Position numbers and translations under genes: made by a program. The notes under the pieces were generated by a model that did not search any database, had not been told where the DNA came from, and was given only the letters and a program-made list of their open reading frames with translations. Below are positions 59,279 to 60,139 of a stretch of DNA of 64,000 bases, piece after piece (position 1 is the stretch's first letter; every line of letters starts with the position of its first letter). Source of the DNA: Escherichia coli (GTDB taxonomy: Bacteria; Pseudomonadota; Gammaproteobacteria; Enterobacterales; Enterobacteriaceae); NCBI RefSeq assembly GCF_051903065.1, contig NZ_CP178438.1. One strand, written 5' to 3'.

Positions 59279-59366
59279 GCTTTTTTATACTAAGTTGGCC
59301 TTATAAAAAAGCATTGCTTATCAATTTGTTGCAACGAACAGGTCACTATCAGTCAAAATAAAATCA
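59279..59366. other. Lambda attL: bacterial B arm, 15-bp core GCTTTTTTATACTAA (59279-59293), then phage P' arm
   Basis: Host-side sequence CTGC + core as in attB, followed by GTTGGCCTTATAAAAAAGCATTGCTTATCAATTTGTTGCAACGAACAGGTCACTATCAGTCAAAATAAAATCATTATTTGATTTC, recognised as the lambda P' arm. Confidence 0.85.
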
Positions 59367-60139
59367 TTATTTGATTTCAATTTTGTCCCACTCCCTGCCT
59401 CTGTCATCGCGATACTGTGATGCCATGGTGTCCGACTTATGCCCGAGAAGATGTTGAGCAAACTTATCGCTTATCTGCTTCTCATAGAGTCTTGCAGACA
59501 AACTGCGCAACTCGTGAAAGGTAGGCGGATCCCCTTCGAAGGAAAGACCTGATGCTTTTCGTGCGCGCATAAAATACCTTGATACTGTGCCGGATGAAAG
59601 CGGTTCACGACGGGTAGATGCAATTATGGTTTCTCCGCCAAGAATCTCTTTGCATTTATTAAGTGTTTCCTTCATTGATATCCCGAGAGCATCAACATGC
59701 AATGTTGTAGGGATGGCAATTTTTACGCCTGTTTTGCTTTGCTCGACATAAATATATCCATCTACGATATCAGACCACTTCATTTCGCATAAATCACCAA
59801 CTCGCTGCCCGGTAACAACAGCCAGTTCCATTGCAAGTCTGAGCCAACATGGTGATGATTCTGCTGCTTGATAAATTTTCAGGTATTCATCAGCCGTAAG
59901 TCTTGATCTCCTTACCTCTGATTTTGCTGCGCGAGTGGCAGCGACCGGGTTTGTTGTTGCATGGCCTTCAGCTAATGCCTCTCGGAATGCATCGCTCAGT
60001 GTTGATCTGATTAACTTGGCTGATGCCGCCTTGCCCTCGTCTATGTATCCATTGAGCATTGCCGCAATTTCTTTTGTGGTGATGTCTTCAAGTGGAACAT
60101 CAGGTAGCCCCCTCCTTATTGCTTTAATTTTGCTCATGT
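59367..60139 (-). pseudogene. int: Lambda-like integrase gene, 5'-truncated (about the C-terminal 256 codons remain)
   Basis: Translation MSKIKAIRRGLPD...DRGREWDKIEIK corresponds to lambda Int from about residue 100 to the C-terminus with a few substitutions; similarity stops abruptly at about 60139 where the IS inverted repeat begins. Confidence 0.9.

Follow-up and report, generated by a model that had tools for sequence, protein, structure and literature searches.

The described systems nearest to the locus analysed here are phage lambda and the phages 434, HK97, HK106, and 2B8, which share with it the attachment core, the P' arm except for one base, and the chromosomal site (ybhC|attB|ybhB), and in which the 3' 771 nt of int are 97.6-98.5% identical to the int sequence that remains at the locus. 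In the lambda integrase (Int), the arm-binding domain comprises approximately residues 1-64 and the core-binding domain approximately residues 65-169. The present locus differs from lambda in that residues 1-100 of Int, xis, and the rest of the phage genome are absent, whereas a tailspike gene fragment and a gtrABC operon, neither of which lambda has, are present. Prophage decay that is associated with insertion sequences (IS) and spares a moron is a textbook phenomenon, and yfdGHI of the CPS-53/KpLE1 remnant in E. coli K-12 represents another gtr-bearing prophage remnant.

Prophages of a P22-like type offer a further comparison. An intact one occupies the same site in strain JNE131328 (L006), where it measures 40,336 bp from core to core and is arranged as attL, int (356 aa), xis, lambdoid early genes, P22-type head genes, a tailspike gene (692 aa), gtrC, gtrB, gtrA, and attR. 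The P22-like coliphage phiHS3 has been reported, on experimental grounds, to integrate upstream of ybhC and to carry an O-antigen modification gene in the gtr position (bioRxiv 10.64898/2026.05.19.726188). The order of genes at the two ends of the JNE131328 prophage is that of the present locus, with 97.9% identity in int/attL and 86.6% identity in gtrB-gtrA-attR. However, prophages of the JNE131328/phiHS3 type are complete, at 40 kb, while the island described here keeps about 5.1 kb of phage DNA, and its tailspike receptor-binding part and its gtrC are of a different type, which just three of 5,426 complete E. coli genomes contain. Operons of the gtr type are also carried by phages and prophage remnants in Salmonella, where they bring about O-antigen glucosylation (Davies et al. 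2013, PMC3688519; see also PMC2909390). The Salmonella loci (PMC3688519) resemble the present one in having kept an operon for O-antigen glucosylation where the prophage around it, at a phage attachment site, has decayed. Both they and yfdGHI differ from it in attachment site, in integrase type, and in the agent of decay, which is here an element of the IS481 family.

Set beside these systems, the locus is very probably a 6.3-kb prophage stub, left when a lambdoid phage integrated and the prophage subsequently underwent an IS481-associated deletion. It is a case of ordinary prophage decay, real but routine, and all of its parts come from well-known families.

The attachment site and the truncated integrase

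The features of the locus that lie inside the window, by which we mean the whole stretch of 64,000 nt that was analysed, are as follows.

57949..59232, minus strand: ybhC, chromosomal, the gal-side flank of attB-lambda (427-aa ORF; so annotated in the identical genome 23CRST027)
59233..59278, plus strand: B arm, the chromosomal side of attL (46 bp, intergenic, continuous with ybhC)
59279..59293, plus strand: lambda common core (O) of attL, 15 bp (exact match, unique in the window)
59294..59371, plus strand: P' arm of attL (lambda sequence except for one substitution)
59367..60138, minus strand: lambda-type int pseudogene, codons 101-356 with the stop and part of codon 100 (from the ORF, comparison with lambda, PGAP, and PHROG)
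60139..61339, plus strand: IS481-family insertion sequence, 1,201 bp (from an NCBIfam model and ends shared by other copies)
60139-60164 and 61314-61339: left (IRL) and right (IRR) inverted repeats of the IS, matching at 21 of 26 bases
60241-61281, plus strand: transposase ORF of the IS, 346 aa
61340..62238, plus strand: 3' part of a tailspike gene, whose 298 codons stay in an open frame between the edge of the IS and the stop codon (from translation and homology)
62266..63873, minus strand: gtrC-type O-antigen glucosyltransferase gene, 535 aa, intact (from Pfam, PHROG, and its position beside gtrB/gtrA)
63873..64000, minus strand: 3' end of gtrB, 128 nt of which lie inside before the gene runs off the window (from PHROG and the identical genomes)

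The lambda core GCTTTTTTATACTAA occurs a single time in the 64-kb window, at 59279-59293 on the plus strand, against 0.12 matches expected in shuffled sequence even with two mismatches permitted, and the same 15 bp are annotated as the attP core in the records of lambda, 434, and HK97. Between the core and 59408, the sole departure of the P' arm side from lambda is a C for A at 59300. The IHF H' core ATCAATTTGTTG stands at 59320-59331 in its lambda form. The arm-type Int sites, which from knowledge of the lambda att site we take to be P'1 (59340-59349), P'2 (59350-59359), and P'3 (59361-59370), together with the H' IHF site, are unchanged from lambda throughout (59340-59370 for the arm-type sites). 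When the B side of the window was joined on paper to the B' side of an identical genome, an uninterrupted ybhC-attB-ybhB region was obtained, and all 430 nt of this rebuilt B-O-B' sequence are found unbroken, with 99.8% identity, in 3,486 of the 5,426 complete E. coli genomes, attB-lambda being interrupted in approximately 36% of them. Hence, the junction sits exactly where a lambda-type integration would place one, and, judged by its sequence, 59279-59293 is a genuine attL (B-O-P') produced by lambda-type site-specific integration.

The phage-derived segment, 59279-60139, aligns without gaps to 43 phage records; it shares 98.5% of its bases with phage 2B8, 98.1% with phage 434, and 97.6% with lambda, where its counterpart is made up of the attP core, the P' arm, and int (J02459 27724-28584). 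Compared base by base with lambda, the window shows 21 differences up to 60139 and agreement at a random level beyond, phage homology ending at 60138/60139, where the left inverted repeat of the IS starts. The minus-strand ORF at 59367-60137 encodes 256 aa that correspond to lambda Int residues 101-356, with eight substitutions and no frameshift, and the break falls within the Tyr100 codon. All of the Int catalytic residues (R212, K235, H308, R311, H333, and Y342) are retained, and PHROG integrase families match the fragment (E 3e-61), but the arm-binding domain and a complete core-binding domain are missing. Specifically, alignment to known structures showed that the fragment covers residues 101-356 of the full-length chains 1z1g and 5j0n, includes no more than 76 residues of 2oxo, a core-binding-domain construct of 103 residues, and is 27 residues short of the 74/75-356 construct crystallised as 1p7d. 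A tblastn search with lambda Int 1-100 and Xis found no homologue of either in the window or in the whole island.

These results agree with most of what a preliminary description had read from the sequence. It had placed the 15-bp core between a B arm on the ybhC side and a P' arm on the other, within coordinates that match the phage-derived segment exactly, and had called for the nucleotide comparison with lambda reported above. Its int frame, matching lambda Int from about residue 100 to the C-terminus, is the ORF just described; its abrupt switch to an IS inverted repeat was located at 60139, in the IRL of the IS481-family element, and its view that the arm-binding domain and xis are gone is borne out by the tblastn search. 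It had named an intact int N-terminus, or an att core missing from lambda, as findings that would speak against it; the ORF starts at residue 101, and the core is present and annotated in the lambda record.

The insertion sequence and the right end of the island

At 60139, the int sequence gives way to the inverted repeat of the IS (TGTATTAGTCGCGAC...). The transposase matches the NCBIfam model NF033577 (transpos_IS481) at 279.2 bits, with a cut-off of 224, and the ends of the element, TGTATTAG...CTAATACA, were set by comparison with copies of 99.4-99.8% identity in three other contexts and are identical in all four genomic contexts. Two of the other copies are flanked by 7-bp target-site duplications (ACTGACT and GCTTATT), whereas the copy in the window lacks one, its flanks being GCTCATG and CATTTGT. 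The absence of a duplication leaves the identity of the IS unaffected and is a signature of deletion or of IS-IS recombination, rather than of simple insertion; thus, the element marks a deletion of roughly 35 kb. A literature search for IS481-family deletions in E. coli prophages gave nothing relevant.

Immediately to the right of the IS lies the tailspike fragment. Its best full-length phage relative in a protein search is the 675-aa tailspike ORF of Kuttervirus CBA6, with 44% identity to residues ~388-675 and none closer. The fragment matches no Pfam, PHROG, or NCBIfam family, and a search of 5.8 billion sequences gave only four proteins at E <= 0.001. In nucleotide sequence, it is 93.9% identical to a full-length, frameshifted tailspike gene on the Logan contig SRR32429200_35 (L012), where homology begins exactly at the IS edge, equivalent to codon 351, and the gene extends 351 codons further upstream. 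The tailspike-gtrC segment occurs in three of the 5,426 complete E. coli genomes and in no others, and these are the three identical to the window in this region. The C-terminal fragment is predicted to represent a rare receptor-binding type.

Beyond the tailspike fragment, the gtr genes follow on the minus strand. The product of gtrC matches Pfam DUF6056 (E 3e-66), phrog_20513 (E 1.7e-133), and the C-terminal half of a GtrB-GtrC fusion family, while GtrB matches phrog_841 (E 2.4e-164) and GtrA matches phrog_2224 (E 8.5e-71). The gtrABC arrangement (flippase-like GtrA, GtrB as a bactoprenol glucosyltransferase of the GT2 type, and GtrC as a serotype-specific glucosyltransferase of the membrane) lies adjacent to attR, and gtrA-gtrB-gtrC are apparently intact in all three of the identical genomes.

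The right end of the island (the 5' part of gtrB, gtrA, and attR) is outside the window and was read from these genomes, the complete E. coli genomes ECNB21-M121, 23CRST027, and 23CRST031, each of which is 100% identical to the window over 58800-64000. Over 43800-64000, 23CRST027 differs from the window by one SNP (window 46281, in modE). Beyond the window end, 23CRST027 continues with gtrB, gtrA, an 84-bp gene fragment, the P arm, a second core, B', and ybhB, which together provide the matching attR (P-O-B'). The attR core is at 21796-21810 in the identical-genome locus (L001), equivalent to 65595-65609 in window numbering and approximately 1.6 kb past the window end. Compared with lambda, P1, P2, and the tI/sib hairpin of the P arm are conserved and most of the X/F/H regions are kept, but the arm diverges at many positions between P2 and the core (the Xis/Fis/H2 region). 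The distance from the attL core to the attR core is 6,316 bp in the three identical genomes, and this interval contains only the int fragment (int'), the IS, the tailspike fragment, gtrCBA, and the 84-bp gene fragment, rather than an intact prophage. An assembly artefact was considered and rejected, since the structure is common to three independently assembled complete genomes.

Some further features of the identical genomes can be recorded here. At L001 21901-23602 (window-equivalent ~65700-67400) in these genomes, ybhB, just past attR, has an internal stop, and a frameshifted tnpB/insQ pseudogene of the RNA-guided endonuclease family lies between ybhB and bioA. In 23CRST027 (NZ_AP045789.1), a 47-bp tandem duplication of IS903B terminal sequence (window 23164-23210) causes an offset between the two sequences; the window has no tandem repeat at 23164-23210, and the offset is unrelated to the prophage stub. 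Together with the SNP in modE, this difference means that the window stems from a very near relation of 23CRST027 rather than from that assembly.

The deletion and the parent phage

From the observed att junctions and truncation points, from an IS that is identified and has no duplication, and from the genes present and a comparison of size with the intact relative, we infer an order of events and a mechanism of deletion. A temperate lambdoid phage would have integrated, through the action of Int, into attB-lambda between ybhC and ybhB, giving rise to attL (B-O-P', 59279-59293) and attR (P-O-B'). The map of this parent prophage would have had a lambda-type int/xis/attP module at one end and the tailspike gene and gtrABC at the other. 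Later, a deletion associated with the IS481-family element would have removed ~35 kb, from int codon 100 to tailspike codon ~351, and with it xis and the immunity, replication, lysis, and virion genes, and the IS would have been left behind at the deletion junction. The preliminary description had proposed that a lambda-like prophage integrated here and was immobilised. Lambda-type integration and the loss of self-excision both stand, but what was immobilised is only a 6.3-kb deletion stub, and its parent was not lambda. It had also pointed to attR and remaining prophage genes beyond the window; attR is there in the identical genomes, 6,316 bp from attL, but gtrB, gtrA, and the 84-bp fragment are the only genes that accompany it.

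Other histories that could leave an IS beside a truncated int have to be weighed against the same observations. The int gene might merely have been interrupted by the IS in an essentially complete lambda-like prophage, with the 5' part of int, xis, and the prophage body continuing to the right of the element, a reading that would accord with an intact attL, an int 3' part free of frameshifts, and a window that stops short of attR. Yet the right flank of the IS is the tailspike 3' fragment, rather than int codons 1-100, the IS lacks a target-site duplication, xis and the N-terminal sequence of Int are absent from both window and island, and in the identical genomes the two att cores are 6,316 bp apart, with the tailspike 3' fragment and gtrCBA to the right of the IS. 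An interrupted but complete prophage is thus barely credible, and the window sequence at 61340-64000 by itself speaks decisively against it. Given a deletion, two routes can be envisaged, for which we see an even chance: homologous recombination between a copy of the IS in int and another in the tailspike gene (route A), or a one-ended adjacent deletion brought about by a single copy through intramolecular transposition (route B). Both predict a single junction IS with non-matching 7-bp flanks, as observed, and a second copy, 99.8% identical, that bounds a tailspike-gtr stub at mdtA and also lacks a duplication shows that the IS has been active in prophages of this lineage. Against both stands the fact that the 5,426 complete genomes yielded no intermediate, for example a complete prophage whose int or tailspike gene carries the IS. 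The data cannot separate route A from route B. An inversion or exchange between the two extant copies of the lineage was rejected, the gene order being collinear through ybhB-bioA and the four flanks showing no cross-match, which speaks against a simple exchange between them.

Two other stubs came to light in related genomes. One lies between mdtA and ibsA in strain 32F4 (L005 5307-12060) and, at 99.8% identity, in 23CRST027 (2531215-2538606). Its IS is the 99.8%-identical IS481-family copy, which has the same orientation and no duplication, its flanks reading GGGTACA and AATTACC. Directly against this copy lies the 5' fragment of a tailspike gene, which has a P22 head-binding domain; after it come two hypothetical genes and a second gtrCBA, and no int is annotated in the stub. 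The other, at attB-lambda in strain 32F4 (L010 1966-12265), is 10,299 bp long and represents an independent IS-adjacent loss of the interior with the gtr end kept; in it, a full-length int and xis are followed by a small number of early genes, by tail-fibre fragments with an IS5 copy on either side, and by gtrCBA and attR. As at the present locus, both have lost the prophage interior beside an IS and have kept the gtr end together with attR. The mdtA stub differs from it in site, and the 32F4 stub in IS family and in the retention of full-length int and xis.

As for its source, the stub descends from a lambdoid temperate phage that had a lambda int/att module, a tailspike gene, and gtr genes, and that is not phage lambda itself. 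The virion type of this parent is ambiguous, given that the relatives of int and of the gtrAB/attR end are P22-like, whereas the relative of the tailspike-gtrC segment, L012, is otherwise: its tailspike has an N-terminal domain of the sort that Cronobacter phage ENT47670 and 'vB_..S_' phages of ~47 kb possess, and not the P22 head-binding domain. In the stub, the N-terminal region of the tailspike is deleted. A distant nucleotide search of the phage collection for the parent gave only short gtrB matches. The L012 contig (13.9 kb) carries the closest relative of the tailspike-gtrCBA module, in a short element of ~11 kb that has an integrase of another type (387 aa), early genes, two holins, the frameshifted tailspike gene, and gtrCBA, beside umuDC-like and yedK-like genes. 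This context indicates that the tailspike-gtrCBA module is mosaic and that it is found, once again, in a reduced element.

Possible mobility, probable O-antigen modification, and neighbouring features

Given that the arm-binding domain of Int, part of its core-binding domain, Xis, and the native int promoter have all been lost, we infer that the stub can neither excise itself nor, with the genes it retains, make virions. The surviving gtrABC most likely glucosylates the O-antigen of the host, to judge from the family assignments and the arrangement of its genes, and the operon is a plausible reason why the right end of the island persists.

Whether the remnants of the recombination system could still act, or be acted upon, can be considered from what is left of them. 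The truncated Int (residues 101-356, with a natural Met start) could in principle be expressed from the end of the IS and behave as a defective or dominant-negative recombinase against incoming phages that use the lambda att site, given that its frame is open, that every catalytic residue is kept, and that its ATG lies 1 nt from the IS end. However, a scan for promoters and terminators over 59200-61500 returned fewer sites than shuffled controls and none pointing out of the IS ends, so that expression of int' and of the tailspike stub finds no support; there is no Shine-Dalgarno sequence ahead of the residual int ATG, and the native promoters went with xis and the upstream DNA. Further, with 76 of the 103 residues of 2oxo and 27 residues fewer than 1p7d, the core-binding domain is partial, which makes both folding and core binding doubtful, and PGAP calls int a pseudogene in an identical genome ('incomplete; missing N-terminus'). 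An interfering Int fragment is, hence, highly improbable, and, with neither an outward promoter-like site nor a ribosome-binding site before the residual ATG, int' is better regarded as a pseudogene, in line with PGAP. The attachment sites themselves have fared better, and the stub might be mobilised in trans, in that a lambda-att-specific phage could supply Int and Xis to excise and re-integrate the 6.3-kb gtr cassette, or its attP could recombine with attL or attR. In favour of this are a P' arm that departs from that of lambda at a single base, which falls in none of the protein-binding sites, a P arm in attR in which P1, P2, and the greater part of the X/F/H regions survive, and the frequency of phages with near-identical int/att modules, as reflected in the 43 phage records and the ~36% of genomes interrupted at the site. 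Nevertheless, the P arm is unlike lambda at many positions between P2 and the core (Xis/Fis/H2), an excised circle would have neither replication nor packaging functions and would be lost, and no helper with such an int was identified in the source genome; we therefore regard mobilisation in trans as rather unlikely.

More speculative still, and decidedly improbable in our estimation, is the proposal that the stub constitutes a minimal gtr cassette, bounded by attL and attR and movable in trans, and/or that stubs retaining gtr are a recurrent, selected outcome of prophage decay. The idea of selection stems from the occurrence, within a single genome, of two independent tailspike-gtr stubs that are bordered by the same IS481-family element, together with the IS5-bounded stub in a related strain. 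If it were true, E. coli would be keeping the end of the prophage that modifies the O-antigen while discarding the lethal part, which would be of modest interest, and the repeated retention of the gtr end beside an IS would provide a small, testable example of prophage domestication.

Apart from correct annotation, the very probable history of integration followed by IS481-associated deletion has little wider importance. Rather than a resident lambda-like prophage, the locus should be annotated as a 6.3-kb, IS-truncated prophage remnant, which probably still modifies the O-antigen. For strain typing, attB-lambda counts as occupied, so that phages of the lambda type would meet attL and attR in place of attB. 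Moreover, the strain probably has two gtr operons, which might change how it reacts in O-serotyping and how sensitive it is to O-antigen-specific phages.

Elsewhere in the window, a search with Rfam at gathering thresholds found no RNA families in 56000-64000. Between sucD and cydA, at 20353-23178, there are an IS1A, a C-terminally truncated LysR-family gene, and an IS903B, where K-12 presumably has mngR-mngA-mngB, and this interval is probably the result of an IS-associated replacement or deletion. In the annotation of a matching genome, seven tRNA genes (Lys-Val-Lys-Val-Lys-Lys-Lys) lie at ~33090-33891, between cpoB and nadA, and the cluster contains an internal repeat of ~280 bp with 93% identity.
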